A DNA stretch of 5,711 nucleotides, from positions 1 to 5,711 of the IMG/VR virus record IMGVR_UViG_3300045988_001120; one strand, 5' to 3'. The number at the start of each line of letters is the position of its first letter. Within the stretch, counting starts at the first letter, position 1. Made by a program: the position numbers and the translations under genes. Shown here in pieces: positions 1-5,711 of the stretch. The notes beneath the pieces are model-generated. The model saw nothing but the letters and a program-made list of their open reading frames with translations. It had not been told where the DNA came from and did no database searches. The DNA comes from a virus.

Positions 1-55
1 CGGCTTCAGACTGGCAGCGTTTGACGATGAAACCGGCGAGTTTACCAACGACAAG
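1..55. repeat. Terminal redundancy (copy 1); identical to 5657-5711, marks a circular genome of 5656 nt
   Basis: Compared base by base: cggcttcagactggcagcgtttgacgatgaaaccggcgagtttaccaacgacaag occurs at 1-55 and again at 5657-5711. An exact 55-nt end overlap is the usual signature of a circular contig from a k-mer assembler, not a biological repeat. Confidence 0.9.
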
Positions 56-88
56 GAAAAGGTATGGGAGGGCAAGCCGCATGAATAA
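1..88 (+). CDS. VP5: 3' end of the VP5/ORF5-like non-structural protein gene (continuation of 5505..5711 across the circular junction)
   Basis: The frame of the ORF opening at 5505 continues through 5657=1. Codons from position 2 read GFRLAAFDDETGEFTNDKEKVWEGKPHE, with TAA at 86-88. Bases 1-55 duplicate 5657-5711. The stop overlaps the VP3 start (ATGAATAA). Confidence 0.65.
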   Translation, partial: GFRLAAFDDETGEFTNDKEKVWEGKPHE

Positions 89-479
89 ACGATACGAAGA
101 AGGGCGAGAGCCCTTCTTTTCTAAATCGGGAGAAAAATTCCAAAAACAATACGTTTGGACGAAGAACGAAAAGGGAGAAGAAGTACTGCAAGAAACAGCA
201 CCAATCGATATCCAACAGGAAATTGAAAGCTATGCGGATGAATGTGATATCAAAAACATTGTCCGAAAAGCGAGTTTTGACCCGCAGTTTCTGAAAAGCC
301 TGTCAGAAGGAGCACTAAACGGAACAGAAGTGGATATCACCGAATTTCCGCAGAACATTCACGAGTATCATCGCATGATTGCAACAGCACAGGCAAACGC
401 CATGAAACTGGAAGAGCTGCAAAAAATGGCAGCAGCAGAACCCGAAGCAGAACCTAAAGAAAAGGAGAAAGAAAAGTGA
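81..479 (+). CDS. VP3: Internal scaffolding protein VP3-like (132 aa from ATG 81)
   Basis: ORF 21..479. I prefer ATG 81, which has GGAGG at 67-71 (9-nt spacing) and the ATGAATAA overlap with the upstream stop. The motif YADECDIKNIVRK resembles the ECDIN-type block I recall in gokushovirus VP3 scaffold proteins. The acidic/Lys-rich tail is AAAEPEAEPKEKEKEK. The gene sits directly upstream of and overlaps VP1 (GTGA). Recognised from memory, not searched. Confidence 0.75.
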   Translation: MNKRYEEGREPFFSKSGEKFQKQYVWTKNEKGEEVLQETAPIDIQQEIESYADECDIKNIVRKASFDPQFLKSLSEGALNGTEVDITEFPQNIHEYHRMIATAQANAMKLEELQKMAAAEPEAEPKEKEKEK

Positions 480-2149
480 ATCGAAACAATGAACGGCACT
501 TTAACCAGATTCCGGAAATAAAAGCGAGCCGAACACGGTTCAACCGTGACCAGACGATTTTAACAACGTTCGATTCCGGCAAGCTGATTCCGTTCTATGT
601 TGACGAGGTATTACCGGGCGATACCTTCAACGTGAACACGACAGCAATCATCCGAATGACAACGCCCAAGTACCCGGTGATGGATGATGCATTCATTGAC
701 TTCTACTATTTCTACTGTCCTAACAGAATTCTGTGGGACAACTTCAAACACTTCATGGGAGAAGTAGAAGAAACACCATGGATGCCAAAAAAAGAATACG
801 CAACGCCAAAAATCGTAATCAACGGAACGGCTAACGCACCAAAGCCAGACGAAAAATCCGTGCTGGACTATATGGGAGTACCAACCAAAATCAAAAAACC
901 GTTTAAGATTAACGCACTACCCGTAAGAGCATACGTAAAAATTTGGAATGAATTTTTCAGAGATGAAAACGTAGACAACGTAGCAACACTAAAAACAGAC
1001 GATACCAGCACAGTATACGAATTTGGAGACGAAAACTGGATGCAAGAAGCTGAAAACAACGCATGGAAAGGCGGAAACCTGTTATCTGTAAACAAATTCC
1101 ACGACTACTTTACCAGCTGTCTGCCGTATCCTCAGCGCGGGCCGGCGGTAACGCTGCCAATGGAAGGTAATGCAGTGGTAAGCGGATACAAAGACCTAAA
1201 ACTTAAGGAAAAAACAACTCTGTATGCAAACAGCTTTTTTGACGGAAGCACAAATCCGGGCAACGTGAAAGACAAAATGTATGCAATCTCAACACTCGGA
1301 GGCGAAGGACAAGCATACGTAACCGTCGGAACAGGAACAGGAACAGCCAATAACGTAGTGTACCTAGGTGCAGACCTAAGCACCGTGACAGCAGCAACCA
1401 TCAACGATTTGAGAAAAGCCGTAGCAGTGCAACAGTACTACGAAGCACTCGCACGAGGCGGCAGCAGATACCGCGAACAGGTACAGGCACTGTGGAACGT
1501 GGTTATCAGTGATAAAACCGTACAGGTGCCGGAATACCTGGGCGGTGGCAGATATCACGTCAATATTAACCAAATCGTACAGACCAGCGGACAGCAGACA
1601 GACAACGACACGCCAATTGGTGAAACCGGTGCAATGTCGGTAACGCCAATCAACGAAAGCAGCTTCACAAAATCTTTTGAGGAGCATGGTTTCGTCATCG
1701 GCGTATGTTGTGTAAGACACAATCACAGTTACCAGCAAGGCTTGGAACATTTCTGGAGTCGAAGTGACAGACTTGACTACTATGTGCCACAGTTTGCAAA
1801 CATTGGCGAACAGCCTGTCAAAAAGAAAGAAATCATGTTAACCGGCGAAGCAACGGATGAAGAGACATTCGGCTACCAGGAAGCATGGGCGGACTACAGA
1901 ATGAAGCCCAACCGAGTATCTGGTAAAATGCGAAGCAATGCAACAGAAACGCTGGATTTCTGGCATTATGCCGACAACTATTCAACCGTACCAACACTGT
2001 CACAAGACTGGATGCAAGAAAGCAAAGTAGAAATTGCGCGCACGCTCATCGTGCAAGATGAGCCGCAGTTCTTCGGTGCTATCCGTGTAGCAAACAAAAC
2101 CACAAGACGGATGCCGTTGTACAGTGTACCGGGCTTGTACAAATTGTAA
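476..2149 (+). CDS. VP1: Major capsid protein VP1 (phiX174 F-type capsid fold, gokushovirus-like), 557 aa
   Basis: GTG start lies 8 nt after AAGGAG (462-467). The N-terminal block FNRDQTILTTFDSGKLIPFYVDEVLPGDTF matches hallmark gokushovirus VP1 blocks. So do the internal blocks TINDLRKAVAVQQYYEALARGGSRYREQVQALW and VPEYLGGG. Size is typical (530-600 aa). Confidence 0.95.
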   Translation: MNRNNERHFNQIPEIKASRTRFNRDQTILTTFDSGKLIPFYVDEVLPGDTFNVNTTAIIRMTTPKYPVMDDAFIDFYYFYCPNRILWDNFKHFMGEVEETPWMPKKEYATPKIVINGTANAPKPDEKSVLDYMGVPTKIKKPFKINALPVRAYVKIWNEFFRDENVDNVATLKTDDTSTVYEFGDENWMQEAENNAWKGGNLLSVNKFHDYFTSCLPYPQRGPAVTLPMEGNAVVSGYKDLKLKEKTTLYANSFFDGSTNPGNVKDKMYAISTLGGEGQAYVTVGTGTGTANNVVYLGADLSTVTAATINDLRKAVAVQQYYEALARGGSRYREQVQALWNVVISDKTVQVPEYLGGGRYHVNINQIVQTSGQQTDNDTPIGETGAMSVTPINESSFTKSFEEHGFVIGVCCVRHNHSYQQGLEHFWSRSDRLDYYVPQFANIGEQPVKKKEIMLTGEATDEETFGYQEAWADYRMKPNRVSGKMRSNATETLDFWHYADNYSTVPTLSQDWMQESKVEIARTLIVQDEPQFFGAIRVANKTTRRMPLYSVPGLYKL

Positions 2150-2159
2150 GAAAGGAGAA

Positions 2160-2185
2160 AGCCCGGAGAAATCCGGGCTATTTTT
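2160..2185 (+). terminator. Stem-loop AGCCCGG-agaaat-CCGGGCT followed by aTTTTT, between VP1 stop and VP2 start
   Basis: A 7-bp GC-rich perfect stem (2160-2166 / 2173-2179) with a 6-nt loop is followed by a T5 run at 2181-2185. It lies 11 nt after the VP1 TAA and 3 nt before the VP2 ATG. This is the geometry of an intrinsic terminator or attenuator. Confidence 0.6.
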
Positions 2186-2187
2186 AA

Positions 2188-3024
2188 ATGGGAGCATTAT
2201 CAGGATTCTTAACAGCACTAAACGTAGCGGGAAACGTAGCAAATACGGTCGGAACAATCGCCGGAGCAGCACAAAACGTTGCTGGAGCTTTTGGCGGATG
2301 GGGTCAGACAGGCAGCAGCCAAAGCCAAGGCGGAAGTACAAGCCAAGGCGGTGGACATTCCGAAAGCGGAAGTCAAGCGGGAACAAACATTCAACAGGTA
2401 AACGACTGGCTTAAGCAAGCATACGCATACCAAGGCCAAGAAGCTGCCATGCAAGGTAAATACAACAGTCAAAGCATGTTAAAGCAGATGGGTTACAACA
2501 CCTTACAAGCAATCATGCAAGGCGTATATAACCACATTGAAAACAGCGTAGCAATGAACTACAACAGTGCAGAAGCACTAGCCAACCGTGAATGGCAAGA
2601 ACACATGTCAAGCACTGCATACCAGCGTGCAGTTGAAGACATGAGAAAAGCGGGACTGAATCCAATCTTAGCTTTTTCAAACGGCGGAGCGAGCACGCCG
2701 GGCGGTAGCGCGGGAACAATCAGCGGTGCGAGCATGGGACTAGCAAGCAGCAGCGCACTAGGAGTAAGCCGAAGCGGTGGATTTGTACCAAACGCATACG
2801 AAAGCAATAGCTGGAGTCAAAGTGACTGGTACAATGCTGCACAGAGCTGGCAGCAGATGCTTAGCAGCACACACATGACACCTTACGGACTGCAAAATGC
2901 ATTAACAGAAATCGCAAGCGATACAGGCAAAGCAATTGACAAAAACGTACCACAAGGAAGCAAAAAACACACTAGCAAATCCGGAGTAACACACGGAGGA
3001 GGAGGAGGTAACATCAAAAAATGA
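2188..3024 (+). CDS. VP2: Minor capsid / DNA pilot protein VP2-like, 278 aa
   Basis: The gene follows VP1 directly. It has a hydrophobic Gly/Ala-rich N-terminus (MGALSGFLTALNVAGNVANTVGTIAGAAQNVAGAFGGWG) and a Gly/Ser/Gln low-complexity segment. The central block STAYQRAVEDMRKAGLNPILAF is the conserved block I recall for gokushovirus VP2. Its stop overlaps the VP4 start (ATGA). Confidence 0.85.
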   Translation: MGALSGFLTALNVAGNVANTVGTIAGAAQNVAGAFGGWGQTGSSQSQGGSTSQGGGHSESGSQAGTNIQQVNDWLKQAYAYQGQEAAMQGKYNSQSMLKQMGYNTLQAIMQGVYNHIENSVAMNYNSAEALANREWQEHMSSTAYQRAVEDMRKAGLNPILAFSNGGASTPGGSAGTISGASMGLASSSALGVSRSGGFVPNAYESNSWSQSDWYNAAQSWQQMLSSTHMTPYGLQNALTEIASDTGKAIDKNVPQGSKKHTSKSGVTHGGGGGNIKK

Positions 3025-4040
3025 GTTGTTACAAGCCATTAATAAGGCTGTACAACCCGGAAAACAAAGATATAAGCGGGCGGGTGTATTCACTTGCCCG
3101 CTTTTCTGAAATATCGGGAAAGCAGCTCAAATATGAAGATTTAATGTTTAGAAAAGATGTCATGTTGATACCATGCGGACAGTGTATCGGATGCAGAATC
3201 AGACAAAGAGAGGACTGGACAACACGAATAGAATTAGAAGCACGAGACTATCCAAAAGAAGAAGTTTGGTTTATAACATTAACCTATAACGATGATCATG
3301 TGCCAGGCATGATAGTAAACACAGGCGAAATCACGCGAAAAGTACAATACGTCTGGAGACCGGGAGAGAAGCGCCCAGAAAGCGTCCAAACTTTGCTATA
3401 TACTGACGTTCAAAAGTTCTTAAAACGCCTCAGAAAGGCTTATAGGGGCAAATTACGCTATTTTGTGGCGGGAGAATACGGAGAACAGACAGCTCGGCCA
3501 CATTACCATATGATACTGTATGGATGGAGACCAACAGACCTAGAGCACCTATACAAGATACAGCACAACGGATATTTCACAAGTAAATGGTTAGAAAACC
3601 TGTGGGGCATGGGGCAAATACAGATAGCACAAGCAGCACCAGCAACATATAGATATGTTGCGGGATACGTTACAAAAAAAATGTACGAAATTGACGGCCA
3701 GAAAGCAAACGTATACTACGAACTAGGACAACAAAAACCTTTTGCGTGTATGAGTCTTAAACCAGGCCTAGGAGATAACTATTACCAAGAACACAAAGCA
3801 GAAATCTGGAGACAAGGCTACATCCAATGCACAAACGGCAAACAAGCACAAATTCCACGCTATTATGAAAAAATGATGGAAGCTGAAAACGCACAAAGAT
3901 TGTGGAGAATTAAACAGAACAGACAAGCAGCAGCCATAGCAGAAAACCGGCTTAAGTATGAAAATGCAGACTTTGAAGAGCAATGCAAGACAAAAGAAAG
4001 AGTGATAAAGAAGCAGATGAAGAAGAGGGGGACACTTTAA
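3021..4040 (+). CDS. VP4: Replication initiation protein VP4 (HUH rolling-circle endonuclease, phiX174 gpA-like), 339 aa
   Basis: Three RCR motifs are present. Motif 1 is FITLTY (3270-3287). Motif 2, the HUH motif, is PHYHMILY (HYH at 3501-3509). Motif 3 is YVAGYVTKK, with two Tyr spaced Y-x3-Y (3654-3668). An N-terminal PCGQCIGCR cysteine cluster is typical of gokushovirus VP4. A (GGA)4GG run at 2995-3008 provides the SD. Confidence 0.93.
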   Translation: MSCYKPLIRLYNPENKDISGRVYSLARFSEISGKQLKYEDLMFRKDVMLIPCGQCIGCRIRQREDWTTRIELEARDYPKEEVWFITLTYNDDHVPGMIVNTGEITRKVQYVWRPGEKRPESVQTLLYTDVQKFLKRLRKAYRGKLRYFVAGEYGEQTARPHYHMILYGWRPTDLEHLYKIQHNGYFTSKWLENLWGMGQIQIAQAAPATYRYVAGYVTKKMYEIDGQKANVYYELGQQKPFACMSLKPGLGDNYYQEHKAEIWRQGYIQCTNGKQAQIPRYYEKMMEAENAQRLWRIKQNRQAAAIAENRLKYENADFEEQCKTKERVIKKQMKKRGTL

Positions 4041-4050
4041 CGGTGTCACC

Positions 4051-4084
4051 TAGCCCAGTACCTATCAAGTAAGGTACTGGGCTA
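4051..4084 (+). terminator. Perfect 13-bp stem-loop (TAGCCCAGTACCT / AGGTACTGGGCTA, 8-nt loop) 11 nt after the VP4 stop; terminator-like or ssDNA origin hairpin
   Basis: 4051-4063 pairs perfectly with 4072-4084 around the loop atcaagta. The downstream sequence ttgtcattt is only weakly T-rich. Confidence 0.5.
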
Positions 4085-4143
4085 TTGTCATTTAAAGAGT
4101 CCATGTATCAATCTATTCAGTCTATCAAATAGCTATACTTTAT

Positions 4144-4187
4144 CGCGCGTGCGCACGCGCGCGAAGCGCGCACGCGCGCACGCGCGG
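4144..4187. repeat. GC-rich alternating purine/pyrimidine palindrome (imperfect ~20-bp hairpin/cruciform; three copies of GCGCACGCGCG)
   Basis: 4144-4163 (20 nt) and 4166-4186 (21 nt) each alternate Y/R perfectly and are separated by AA. Pairing i+j=8330 gives 4144-4154 with 4176-4186 (11 bp), then 2 bp and 5 bp segments separated by single mismatches. GCGCACGCGCG starts at 4151, 4168 and 4176. Only 6 of 44 bases are A/T, in an otherwise moderate-GC genome. Confidence 0.85.
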
Positions 4188-4200
4188 CTCTTCAGCGCTA

Positions 4201-4230
4201 TTGTTCGCAAGCTCACAAGCGCTGTATAAT
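4201..4230 (+). promoter_or_regulatory. Candidate sigma70-type promoter: TTGTTC (4201-4206), 18-nt spacer, TATAAT (4225-4230)
   Basis: The -10 hexamer is perfect and is preceded by TG. The -35 matches only 3/6 and the spacer is 18 nt. It would transcribe into the iteron region. Confidence 0.35.
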
Positions 4231-4270
4231 ATATAACTTGTTGTAGGAGTAGTAGTAGAGATAGTGGAAA

Positions 4271-4438
4271 AGTTGAAAAGTACTAAAATTTAACGCTAAA
4301 GCGTAAATAAAAAGCAAAAAATGCTGTTGAAAGTTTTGTTGAAAACTTGTTGAATTGTTGAAAGTCCGTCAAAATGACGAAAACCTTTGTGCAACATTTT
4401 GTTGAAAACCTGTTGAAAGTGTTGAAAGTGTTGAAAAC
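4271..4438 (+). repeat. Iteron array: 9 direct copies of GTTGAA, 8 of them as TGTTGAA(A/T), in two clusters of four
   Basis: TGTTGAA starts at 4325, 4337, 4348, 4356 and at 4400, 4411, 4420, 4429. AGTTGAA is at 4271 and a degenerate TGTTGTA at 4239. There are two subtypes, TGTTGAAAGT and TGTTGAAAAC. TTTTGTTGAAAAC is exact at 4334 and 4397. All copies are on the same strand. Confidence 0.9.
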
Positions 4439-4581
4439 GCGCACAGCGCTTACAATGAATGGATTAGCCGAGTTCCGCATACGCTCCACACGGCAAGGCG
4501 CTGAAGCGCTTTCAAAACAAAGGAGCAAAACCGGGTTACAAGAGAAGGTTACAATTTTATTACAAAACAGCAAAATCCCGG

Positions 4582-4610
4582 TTGACAATCGGGAGCTTTT
4601 ATTTTATAAT
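4582..4610 (+). promoter_or_regulatory. Perfect consensus sigma70 promoter TTGACA-17 nt-TATAAT upstream of the peptidase gene
   Basis: TTGACA is at 4582-4587 and TATAAT at 4605-4610, with a spacer of exactly 17 nt. The predicted start near 4617 lies just before the SD AAAGGGGG (4617-4624) and ATG 4632. Confidence 0.75.
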
Positions 4611-4631
4611 ACAGACAAAGGGGGCGCAAAA

Positions 4632-5024
4632 ATGCTTAAATGTTATATCATGAACACAGACGGAAATGTACAACTTGCAAGACACTTCAAAGTAAAAGAA
4701 TTTGCATGTAAAGACGGAAGTCCGATAGTATTCATAGATGACTACTTGTATAACGTTCTGGACATCCTCCGACATAAACTAGGGAAACCAGTCATTATCA
4801 CCAGCGGATACAGAACACCAGAGTGGAACAAAAAATGTAACGGAGCAAAATACAGCTACCACATGCGCGGTATGGCAGCAGATATCCGAGTCGATGGCAT
4901 GAGCACAAAAGAACTTGCCAACAAACTGAATGAAATCGTCCCGGATGAATGCGGCATTATCGTATACAACACTTGGGTGCATTTTGATGTGCGAAACGGG
5001 AAAAAATACAGAAAGGGGGTATAA
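4632..5024 (+). CDS. Zinc D-Ala-D-Ala carboxypeptidase / M15-family (M15_3-like) peptidoglycan peptidase, putative endolysin, 130 aa
   Basis: The zinc-ligand pattern is SYHMRGMAAD (H at 4860-4862, D at 4881-4883) plus WVHFD (H at 4980-4982). The KEFACKDG and TSGYR blocks are typical of small phage M15 peptidases. ATG 4632 is preceded by AAAGGGGG at 7-nt spacing. The track ORF starts at 4374, but that extension only translates the iteron array. Confidence 0.87.
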   Translation: MLKCYIMNTDGNVQLARHFKVKEFACKDGSPIVFIDDYLYNVLDILRHKLGKPVIITSGYRTPEWNKKCNGAKYSYHMRGMAADIRVDGMSTKELANKLNEIVPDECGIIVYNTWVHFDVRNGKKYRKGV

Positions 5025-5025
5025 G

Positions 5026-5148
5026 ATGGCACTGATTTCCATTAAGGACGTCAAACAGGCAATCCGCATTATGATGCAGATTCTGGAAAAGCTTGACGAA
5101 ATCTATCACGCGCTGCATGATAGCATCAACGAAAACGAAAAGGAGTAA
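5026..5148 (+). CDS. Hypothetical small protein, 40 aa (MALISIKDVKQAIRIMMQILEKLDEIYHALHDSINENEKE)
   Basis: ATG 5026 lies 6 nt after AAAGGGGG (5012-5019) and 1 nt after the peptidase stop. The composition is helical and amphipathic. No family was recognised. Confidence 0.45.
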   Translation: MALISIKDVKQAIRIMMQILEKLDEIYHALHDSINENEKE

Positions 5149-5152
5149 AACC

Positions 5153-5380
5153 ATGACAAGAACGACATGGAATGCAAGAGACACCCCCAAAGCAGCATTA
5201 GAAGAGCTGCTCGCACGAAAATACAAAGAAATTGATAGCAATTACAAAATGCTAAGAAAAGTAGCCAACGCCGAAGATGCAAAAAAGTTGATTGACGAAA
5301 TTTGGCAAATGAAAGACTTTGCAAATAGCATTGAAATAGAACTAATGAGGAGGGAATACAAAAATGGCACGACATCGTAA
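5153..5380 (+). CDS. Hypothetical protein, 75 aa, charged/helical (MTRTTWNARDTPKAALEELLARKYKEIDSNYKMLRKV...)
   Basis: ATG 5153 lies 7 nt after AAAGGAG (5139-5145) and 4 nt after the previous stop. The gene is packed in series with its neighbours. No family was recognised and no transmembrane segment is visible. Confidence 0.5.
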   Translation: MTRTTWNARDTPKAALEELLARKYKEIDSNYKMLRKVANAEDAKKLIDEIWQMKDFANSIEIELMRREYKNGTTS

Positions 5381-5486
5381 AGTAATGGGCGGCGCAAAAG
5401 ACCGCCGTATGTTTAACGTAACCGCACGAAAAACCAAAACCATCAACCTCAGCCAGAAGCCTATGCGTGGTGGCATCCGGCTGTAA
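5364..5486 (+). CDS. Small basic DNA-binding/packaging protein, gokushovirus ORF8 / phiX174 J-like, 40 aa
   Basis: Hand-translated as MARHRKVMGGAKDRRMFNVTARKTKTINLSQKPMRGGIRL, ending at TAA 5484-5486. AGGAGG at 5348-5353 is 10 nt upstream of the ATG. The protein is Arg/Lys-rich, and the C-terminal MRGGIRL matches the ending I recall for gokushovirus ORF8-type proteins. It is below the ORF-track size cut-off and overlaps the previous ORF by 17 nt. Confidence 0.7.
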   Translation: MARHRKVMGGAKDRRMFNVTARKTKTINLSQKPMRGGIRL

Positions 5487-5504
5487 AAAAGGAGAGTAGA
5501 TATC

Positions 5505-5711
5505 ATGCAGCATGAATATTTTGGCCTGTGGGACAGTGTAGCAAAGTGCTATGCATGGGTAGGCGAGAGCAAGAACAATGCAACCTTTGCACGCATGTGC
5601 AACGTAATGGCAAAGGATGAAAAAACGTTTGTAGGACAAGCACCTGGGGACTATACCGGCTTCAGACTGGCAGCGTTTGACGATGAAACCGGCGAGTTTA
5701 CCAACGACAAG
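5505..5711 (+). CDS. VP5: VP5/ORF5-like non-structural protein, 5' part (79 aa in total once joined across the circular junction to position 88)
   Basis: ATG 5505 lies 10 nt after AAGGAGA (5488-5494). The frame stays open to the window end: MQHEYFGLWDSVAKCYAWVGESKNNATFARMCNVMAKDEKTFVGQAPGDYTGFRLAAFDDETGEFTNDK. The pattern (WDSVAK.., ..ATFARM.., DYTGFRLAAFDDETGEF) resembles conserved blocks of gokushovirus ORF5 proteins as I recall them. It is missing from the track because no stop lies inside the window. Confidence 0.68.
   Translation, partial: MQHEYFGLWDSVAKCYAWVGESKNNATFARMCNVMAKDEKTFVGQAPGDYTGFRLAAFDDETGEFTNDK
5657..5711. repeat. Terminal redundancy (copy 2), identical to 1-55
   Basis: See feature 1-55. 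Confidence 0.9.

Follow-up and report, generated by a model that had tools for sequence, protein, structure and literature searches.

How could a very small phage genome that carries a gene for an apparent murein hydrolase, and neither a recognisable holin nor a signal peptide to go with it, put such an enzyme to use? The question is raised by a stretch of viral DNA of 5,711 nucleotides (IMG/VR record IMGVR_UViG_3300045988_001120, positions 1 to 5,711; hereafter the window), which represents a complete circular gokushovirus-type genome with every gene on the plus strand. Between the replication initiator gene VP4 and the block of VP8-like, VP5, VP3 and VP1 genes, a location that was confirmed by Pfam and PHROG annotation of the neighbours, lies a gene for a protein of 130 amino acids (Table 1). 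In the human gut, gokushoviruses rank with the most abundant phages, and we know of no member of the gut clades for which a host has been cultured or a lysis mechanism defined. Judged from its sequence, the protein is an intact zinc peptidase of family M15, like those annotated as phage endolysins, and the reading that we favour, with a probability of roughly 0.6, is that of a cytoplasmic, catalytic-domain-only M15 endolysin that would let the progeny out of a host among the Clostridia, probably one with a single membrane.

The peptidase (15.0 kDa, isoelectric point (pI) 9.3, beginning MLKCYIMNTDGNVQ) consists of the catalytic domain only. It matched Pfam Peptidase_M15_3 (PF08291) with 79.5 bits, far over the cut-off of 23.2 (E 2.4e-22), and coverage was near-complete, residues 18-119 falling on positions 2-108 of the 108 in the profile. 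A weaker second Pfam match, to Peptidase_M15_2, reached 33.6 bits (cut-off 27), and PHROG 894 'endolysin' was matched with E 5.3e-44. The M15 signature from which the gene had been recognised in the initial annotation, S75-Y-H77-M-R-G-M-A-A-D84 (H-x6-D) followed by V-H117-F-D119, proved robust: R61, S75, H77, D84, H117 and D119 were invariant both in an alignment of 40 diverse sequences, with identities down to 35%, and in 90 viral copies of the peptidase, over which 38 residues, all motif residues among them, did not vary. H77, D84 and H117 are the putative zinc ligands. An AF2 model built on the 40-sequence alignment (predicted local distance difference test score (pLDDT) 97.4, predicted template modelling score (pTM) 0.90) displayed the LAS-type alpha/beta fold of MEROPS family M15, clan MD. 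Among solved structures, the closest both by sequence (E 2e-4) and by fold (Foldseek probability 1.0) was the Zn D-Ala-D-Ala peptidase 1lbu from Streptomyces albus G (MEROPS M15A), in which S-x-H-x-x-G-x-A-x-D is aligned and H77-D84 fall on SRHMYGHAAD; the two proteins nevertheless share only 23% identity and a template modelling (TM) score of ~0.5, and 1lbu is a secreted cellular enzyme. Likewise, the hedgehog-N domain was matched with probability 1.0 and VanXYc, VanY, Ply500 and ChiX with 0.8-0.99, LysECD7 was also among the structural matches, and the best viral fold matches were the peptidase domains of gut sipho- and myovirus proteins of 341-349 amino acids (TM 0.97). The match to the NCBIfam model of Escherichia coli MepK (M15_2/DUF882), again a secreted cellular enzyme, was sub-threshold (42.9 versus 185 bits).

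The extent of the gene was settled as follows. A longer open reading frame (ORF) at 4374-5024, of 216 amino acids, was rejected as the true gene, as the Pfam domain begins only at its residue 104, the promoter and Shine-Dalgarno sequence sit inside the extension, and, of the 120 top homologues listed, almost all have 130 amino acids without an N-terminal extension. The stretch 5' of the peptidase is open in differing frames across relatives because it is built of conserved TGTTGAAA DNA repeats. Position 4582, given initially as the start of the gene, is instead the first base of the -35 hexamer.

The gene is not confined to the window. Searching a database yielded 1,487 homologues. The top 120 are at least 78% identical to the peptidase, and the longer contigs among these are mostly 5-6 kb. 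Identity amounted to 65-88% for the GenBank copies in KX513868, KX513877, KT264791 and MT121961 and to as much as 96% for copies in IMG/VR; KX513868 and KX513877 are annotated 'peptidase M15', and pig-faeces records (MG945xxx) 'similar to peptidase'. Relatives were sampled as 80 viral contigs via the peptidase and 80 via VP4, and the peptidase was present in every complete clade genome (VP4 at least 88% identical) examined. Five genomes flagged for a missing peptidase or a missing s40, the small gene directly downstream, were all explained: in L151, L166 and L176 the contigs are broken in or beside the gene, in L056 the gene spans the circular junction, and in L162 the peptidase is present, cut at the contig end, the flag having been raised by a cut-off s40. 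No relative lacking the peptidase, which would show the gene to be dispensable, was found among the complete clade genomes. The ratio of nonsynonymous to synonymous substitution rates (dN/dS) was ~0.15 over 3,541 pairs. The gene is fixed in the clade and under purifying selection; it is not a sporadic passenger. The statement in the initial annotation that M15 peptidases had been noted in metagenomic microviruses was correct (PMC3394797, PMC9239249), whereas the word sporadic does not fit a gene found in all complete clade genomes and with 1,487 homologues, nor does insertion, if taken as a recent event.

These data also bear on the view that the gene is a neutral or decaying passenger, brought in by horizontal transfer and without a role in the phage cycle. 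Microviral accessory genes are rare and the region between VP4 and the peptidase is variable in content, as would suit a passenger, but the dN/dS value, the 38 invariant residues with all motif residues among them, the presence of the gene in all complete clade members, and its position behind the best promoter of the genome and a strong Shine-Dalgarno sequence speak against it. The selection and conservation data effectively refute the passenger explanation.

The promoter upstream of the peptidase, TTGACA-17-TATAAT, is the sole 12/12 match in the window, with runners-up at 9/12; by our own arithmetic the chance expectation of such a site in 5.7 kb, counting both strands, is ~0.002. Throughout 80 related complete genomes, plus-strand sites of at least 11/12 lay within 600 nucleotides upstream of the peptidase ATG in 77 of 77 cases, and no promoter-like site of that quality was found elsewhere or on the minus strand. 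Such a site stood within 120 nucleotides of the peptidase start in 57 of the 80. The clade promoters often carry a TGn extension, and the relatives have GGAG or GAGG at the Shine-Dalgarno position. Between position 4610 and the end of VP1 no terminator-like site was detected in the window. With this as the only near-consensus promoter and no terminator up to the end of VP1, the site most likely drives the whole block and not the peptidase alone: it would transcribe peptidase-s40-s75-VP8-VP5-VP3-VP1, with the peptidase promoter-proximal, and in the simplest reading it is the main promoter of the genome. Thus, the promoter is real, but it is probably that of the structural operon and not, as first described, the peptidase's own.

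In the window, a GC-rich hairpin followed by a T-rich tract, GCTTTTATTTT, carries the -35 hexamer in its loop. A like hairpin was observed in seven relatives (L003, L004, L006, L057, L077, L082 and L086), with the loop TTGAC(A/G) invariant and the stems complementary; six distinct stem sequences occur over the eight genomes, window included, and two genomes share one stem. The arrangement, which was seen in 8/142 loci only, looks like a compact intrinsic terminator overlapping the promoter. In a further group of relatives (L001, L007, L008, L009 and L061-L102), to which the window does not belong, TTGACA stands 9 nucleotides before the peptidase ATG, with another ORF preceding. There, TATCAT from codons 5-7 completes an 11/12 site whose start would lie inside the peptidase ORF, and this may reflect shared ancestry and coding constraint, not function.

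How the enzyme would reach the murein depends on what else the genome encodes. No signal peptide or signal-anchor-release (SAR) segment was found in the peptidase N-terminus from the hydropathy of its first 35 residues (best 19-residue Kyte-Doolittle mean -0.04, best 8-mer 0.74). Among all open frames of 20 or more amino acids on the plus strand, overprinted ones included, the highest 19-mer mean was 1.12, at the N-terminus of the DNA pilot protein VP2, where relatives score 1.05-1.56 and an AxxxAxxxGxxxG pattern is present. The calibration proteins scored 2.79 (phiX174 E), 1.36 (lambda S105) and, for two proteins of a Faecalibacterium prophage described below, 1.54 (a holin) and 2.43. The initial annotation was accurate in finding neither a signal or SAR-like segment nor a plus-strand ORF resembling a holin, and in singling out the VP2 N-terminus as the only markedly hydrophobic stretch. 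A phiX174 E-type small membrane-anchored protein was absent from every plus-strand frame, and the PHROG search of the window gave no lysis match besides the peptidase. The 80 related complete genomes were then screened by a lenient rule (19-mer mean of 1.0 or more, no more than one charged residue, a start codon, ORF length up to 230 amino acids), a threshold of 1.6 having missed the prophage holins; the outcome was the same at 1.5-1.6 and at the recalibrated value. The rule returned 19 scattered ORFs, with at most three per 150-nucleotide bin of relative position and none recurrent. The absence of a small membrane protein thus characterises the clade as a whole and is no quirk of a single genome. 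Neither in the window nor in the 80 relatives was an adjacent or co-transcribed holin found, as a canonical holin-endolysin cassette would have. With phiX174 E and other single-gene lysis proteins the phage shares a small genome and lysis with minimal coding; however, E, the product of a frame overprinted on gene D, is anchored in the membrane and inhibits MraY, whereas the phage in the window encodes a hydrolase instead. A universal, constrained gene in a clade without holin, signal or small membrane protein implies that lysis or entry needs a step outside current models of phage lysis.

Several candidate membrane proteins were considered in the course of this search and rejected. An ORF overprinted on VP1 at 684-767, with a length of 27-76 amino acids among relatives, is non-hydrophobic and exists because of conserved GATGAT codons. 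The hydrophobic ORFs of the minus strand (e.g. 5106-5639 and 4957-5241) are an artefact of composition: the plus strand contains 36% A, and its T-rich complement therefore yields hydrophobic codons; moreover, no minus-strand promoter of at least 11/12 was seen in the 80 genomes. The overprinted VP1 frames reading 'LLYGY...LLLCSVPSAVG' and that at the 3' end of VP4 reading 'VLPLPLFA...' are mostly startless and not conserved as ORFs. As a separate observation, the +1 frame within VP2 holds an ATG-initiated, extremely basic ORF of 38 amino acids at 2298-2414 (MGSDRQQPKPRRKYKPRRWTFRKRKSSGNKHSTGKRLA), which L001 and L002 have too. It lies over the Gly/Ser-rich part of VP2, whose composition may have given rise to it.

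The cellular relatives of the peptidase point to the kind of system from which it came. In a search of bacteria and archaea with one genome per species, the closest homologues had identities of at most 49% and came nearly all from Clostridia (Lachnospiraceae, Oscillospiraceae, Faecalibacterium and Lacrimispora). The genomic context was inspected in detail for one of them, on the contig CABQER010000053 (L014) of a Faecalibacterium metagenome-assembled genome. Here a single-domain M15_3 homologue of ~130-140 amino acids, 46% identical and likewise assigned to PHROG 894, follows a tail-fibre-like gene and is itself followed by a small protein with a membrane segment (phrog_1863) and a phrog_263 holin; unlike the peptidase, these two have no equivalent in the 80 related genomes. 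Most likely, the ancestor of the clade captured the domain from a lysis cassette of a Clostridia prophage, and the holin was left behind. Other homologues bear signal peptides, and domains of 38-51% identity occur joined to GH25 muramidase, SH3, PG_binding_1 and tail-lysozyme domains, from which it follows that the family acts on mature murein. Promoter consensus differs between Bacillota and Bacteroidota, and the consensus -35/-10 promoters and strong Shine-Dalgarno sequences of the clade would fit a host among the former, not the latter. Gut gokushoviruses have been assigned to Clostridiales via clustered regularly interspaced short palindromic repeat (CRISPR) spacers (Shah 2023, PMC10159846).

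An enzyme that never leaves the cytoplasm would have no need of a holin. It could cut the stem peptide of UDP-MurNAc-pentapeptide or lipid II in a VanX/VanY-like fashion, acting as an enzymatic 'protein antibiotic' under which growing cells lyse. Such an activity would explain why so small a genome provides no holin, signal or wall-binding domain; the closest solved relatives, in sequence and in fold, are D-Ala-D-Ala carboxypeptidases or dipeptidases (1lbu, VanXYc, VanY), and the stem peptide is, as is well established, chemically identical in precursors and mature murein. We nevertheless regard precursor cleavage as very improbable. The nearest homologues are joined to domains for wall binding or to muramidases, bear signals or, in the Faecalibacterium prophage, stand beside a holin, all of which places their action outside the membrane; no residue change in the 40-sequence alignment separates the viral copies from these homologues; and canonical endolysins are generally known to accumulate in the cytoplasm without toxicity.

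Peptidases of this family have been described in gut microviruses before. Roux et al. (2012, PLoS One 7:e40418, PMC3394797) found M15_3 peptidases in five Gokushovirinae and six Alpavirinae from human samples, noted their affinity to Faecalibacterium and a prophage context that included a holin, and suggested a role as endolysin together with horizontal transfer. The Pfam family, virus group, habitat, position after VP4 and Faecalibacterium/Clostridiales homologues are the same as for the window; the gene occurred in 11/81 genomes there and is universal here, which is no essential difference. Peptidases belong to the small set of accessory genes that recur in microviruses (Kirchberger et al. 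2022, PMC9239249), and M15 peptidases and an endolysin gene (lys) have been reported in cultured roseophage and Rhizobium microviruses, respectively. The occurrence of the peptidase in gut gokushoviruses and its proposed role as an endolysin have thus been known since 2012, and what is new here is the clade-wide fixation with its dN/dS value, the Clostridial nearest relatives, the promoter and operon context, and the sharpened problem of an endolysin without a holin. A literature search returned no experimental work on a gokushovirus M15 peptidase, on its export, or on a microvirus holin. The one accessory microviral murein hydrolase with demonstrated activity is Gp7 of Ebor, a 'Tainavirinae' microvirus of Rhodobacter, an active peptidoglycan hydrolase of which trace amounts were detected in virions (mBio 2025, PMC11980548). 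However, Ebor belongs to another microvirus lineage, has a Gram-negative host, and encodes a predicted membrane protein of 45 amino acids, Gp1 (possibly a holin), that is absent from the clade of the window.

The Ebor result also bears on the possibility that the peptidase acts at entry. A few copies, packaged in or attached to the virion, would locally open the thick wall of a Gram-positive-type host, which would give a tail-less particle of 25-30 nm and its VP2 conduit access to the membrane. For an enzyme acting from outside, the absence of holin and signal poses no problem, co-transcription with the structural genes from one promoter would be expected, a small basic protein (15 kDa, pI 9.3) would be suited to the task, tailed phages use the M15A/M15_3 domain in their tail lysins, and Gp7 does occur in virions (PMC11980548), albeit at trace level only. 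Two further considerations make this use unlikely: the T=1 capsid interior is already full, with an unusually long genome of 5.66 kb, VP2 and the VP8-like protein, and the cellular homologue inspected in detail adjoins a holin in its prophage. Moreover, to our knowledge no microvirus packages an enzyme.

Returning to the endolysin reading, a leaderless peptidase would be made in the cytoplasm as the product of the first gene of the scaffold and capsid operon, and since it heads that operon the enzyme would accumulate alongside the virions. As a working guess, the membrane might be crossed without a holin through late membrane damage or depolarisation, possibly caused by the membrane-inserting N-terminus of VP2 when VP2 is in excess. 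Alternatively, enzyme set free from the first burst cells could attack the exposed wall of their neighbours from outside, which would be feasible on a single-membrane host. A further possibility would be help from the tightly coupled s40, although its product is acidic and not membrane-like. Several points weigh against this reading. We infer the muralytic activity, the role in lysis and its timing; the passage of a leaderless, holin-less endolysin across the membrane is pure conjecture, and the Clostridial, probably single-membrane character of the host is likewise deduced. The peptidase has no cell-wall-binding domain, such as most endolysins of Gram-positive phages carry. Finally, the M15_3/M15A domain is found also in virion-associated tail lysins (Gp5-type and proteins of more than 600 amino acids), and the fold alone therefore cannot separate exit from entry. 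Whether the arrangement amounts to a minimal lysis system of a kind not described before, serving Clostridial hosts with a single membrane, is doubtful; it would combine the leaderless M15 peptidase with a non-holin passage function (the glycine-zipper N-terminus of VP2 late in infection, or s40 as a partner in export or activation), or else use one enzyme for entry and exit. The Clostridial affinities and the holin-less problem provide a concrete experimental handle, and the peptidase, being small and domain-only, could be a candidate lysin for use against Clostridia of the gut.

Two small genes, s40 and s75, lie directly downstream. Both products are charged and helical rather than membrane-like, in agreement with the initial annotation, and neither gave a Pfam, PHROG or NCBIfam match; they are clade-specific genes. 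The s40 start codon lies 1 nucleotide past the peptidase stop in the window and 1-2 nucleotides past it in 86 of ~120 genomes; in one sub-clade s40 does not adjoin the peptidase. The ratio of nonsynonymous to synonymous polymorphism (pN/pS) of s40 was 0.17 over 130 genomes, and its median identity across genomes was 90%, versus 81% for the peptidase. We conclude that s40 is a real gene.

Table 1. Features of the 5,711-nucleotide window, in order of position
Feature	Positions	Strand	Basis or remark
VP3 scaffold	81-479	+	Chlamy_scaf match
VP1 capsid	476-2149	+	Phage_F, E 1e-140
Terminator-like hairpin after VP1	2160-2179	+	First such site downstream of the promoter at 4582
Gly/Ala-rich hydrophobic N-terminal segment of VP2	2188-2304	+	Sole membrane-like segment of the plus strand
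VP2 DNA pilot protein	2188-3024	+	phrog_8742 'pilot protein for DNA ejection', E 7e-119
VP4 replication initiator	3021-4040 (stop 4038-4040)	+	REP_ORF2-G2P, phrog_942
Terminator-like hairpin	4051-4084	+	13-bp stem TAGCCCAGTACCT...AGGTACTGGGCTA, directly after the VP4 stop codon; second such site downstream of the promoter at 4582
Hairpin TCCCGGTT-GAC-AATCGGGA	4576-4594	+	Terminator scan; alternatively 6-bp stem around loop TTGACAA
Promoter, sigma-70/sigma-A type	4582-4610	+	TTGACA 4582-4587, 17-nucleotide spacer, TATAAT 4605-4610
Shine-Dalgarno AAGGGGG	4618-4624	+	7 nucleotides 5' of ATG, read from sequence
Peptidase_M15_3 gene (predicted LAS-fold zinc peptidase)	4632-5024	+	ATG 4632, TAA 5024; Pfam, PHROG, alignments, model
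s40	5026-5148	+	Acidic helical protein of 40 amino acids, pI 5.2; begins MALISIKDVKQAIRIMMQILEKLDEIYHALHD
s75	5153-5380	+	Charged helical protein of 75 amino acids, conserved ~72%
VP8-like basic protein	5364-5486	+	
VP5	5505 across the circular junction	+	Product of 79 amino acids, same in relatives

The assignment of the window to the gokushovirus-type Microviridae, as initially proposed, was borne out by the Pfam and PHROG matches of Table 1 and by a match to phrog_1670, together with the small circle and the location of VP1-VP5 on one strand. An exact direct repeat of 55 nucleotides at the termini (1-55 = 5657-5711) is an assembly overlap of the circular genome; the true circle therefore measures 5656 nucleotides, and the length of the window is not that of the genome. 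The nearest GenBank record, Gokushovirus WZ-2015a from human faeces, is 85% identical across 95% of the genome, KT264791 showed 85% nucleotide identity, and the remaining GenBank relatives are from the human gut and pig faeces. An Rfam scan of the whole window gave no significant match.

Between VP4 and the peptidase ORF, ~590 nucleotides are without a convincing gene. The hairpin immediately behind VP4 may terminate transcription or act as a signal for replication or packaging. The interval is a variable accessory region, occupied in different relatives by one to three small ORFs for unrelated soluble products of 54-132 amino acids (e.g. L001 4145-4513, L006 1586-1984 and L008 1519-1875); the window has none. 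The peptidase (65-96% identity) is more variable than VP4 (88-96%), which is consistent with recombination in the region. At 4140-4195, a near-perfect alternating purine-pyrimidine CG/CA tract of ~55 nucleotides (CGCGCGTGCGCACGCGCGCGAAGCGCGCACGCGCGCACGCGCG) stands out in an otherwise A-rich genome; relatives share a tract of this type, and the open frames there read ARAHAHEARARARA. It is followed at 4272-4436 by an iteron-like array of seven exact TGTTGAAA repeats and one GTTGAAA in ~165 nucleotides of noncoding DNA, for which the chance expectation was 0.4 and 0 of 200 shuffles reached seven. Arrays of 6-10 copies are located 150-800 nucleotides upstream of the peptidase in most relatives, and in a subset of genomes the entire array is on the opposite strand, which points to a function at the DNA level that is independent of orientation and exerted in the double-stranded form, for example binding by a replication protein or a host factor.

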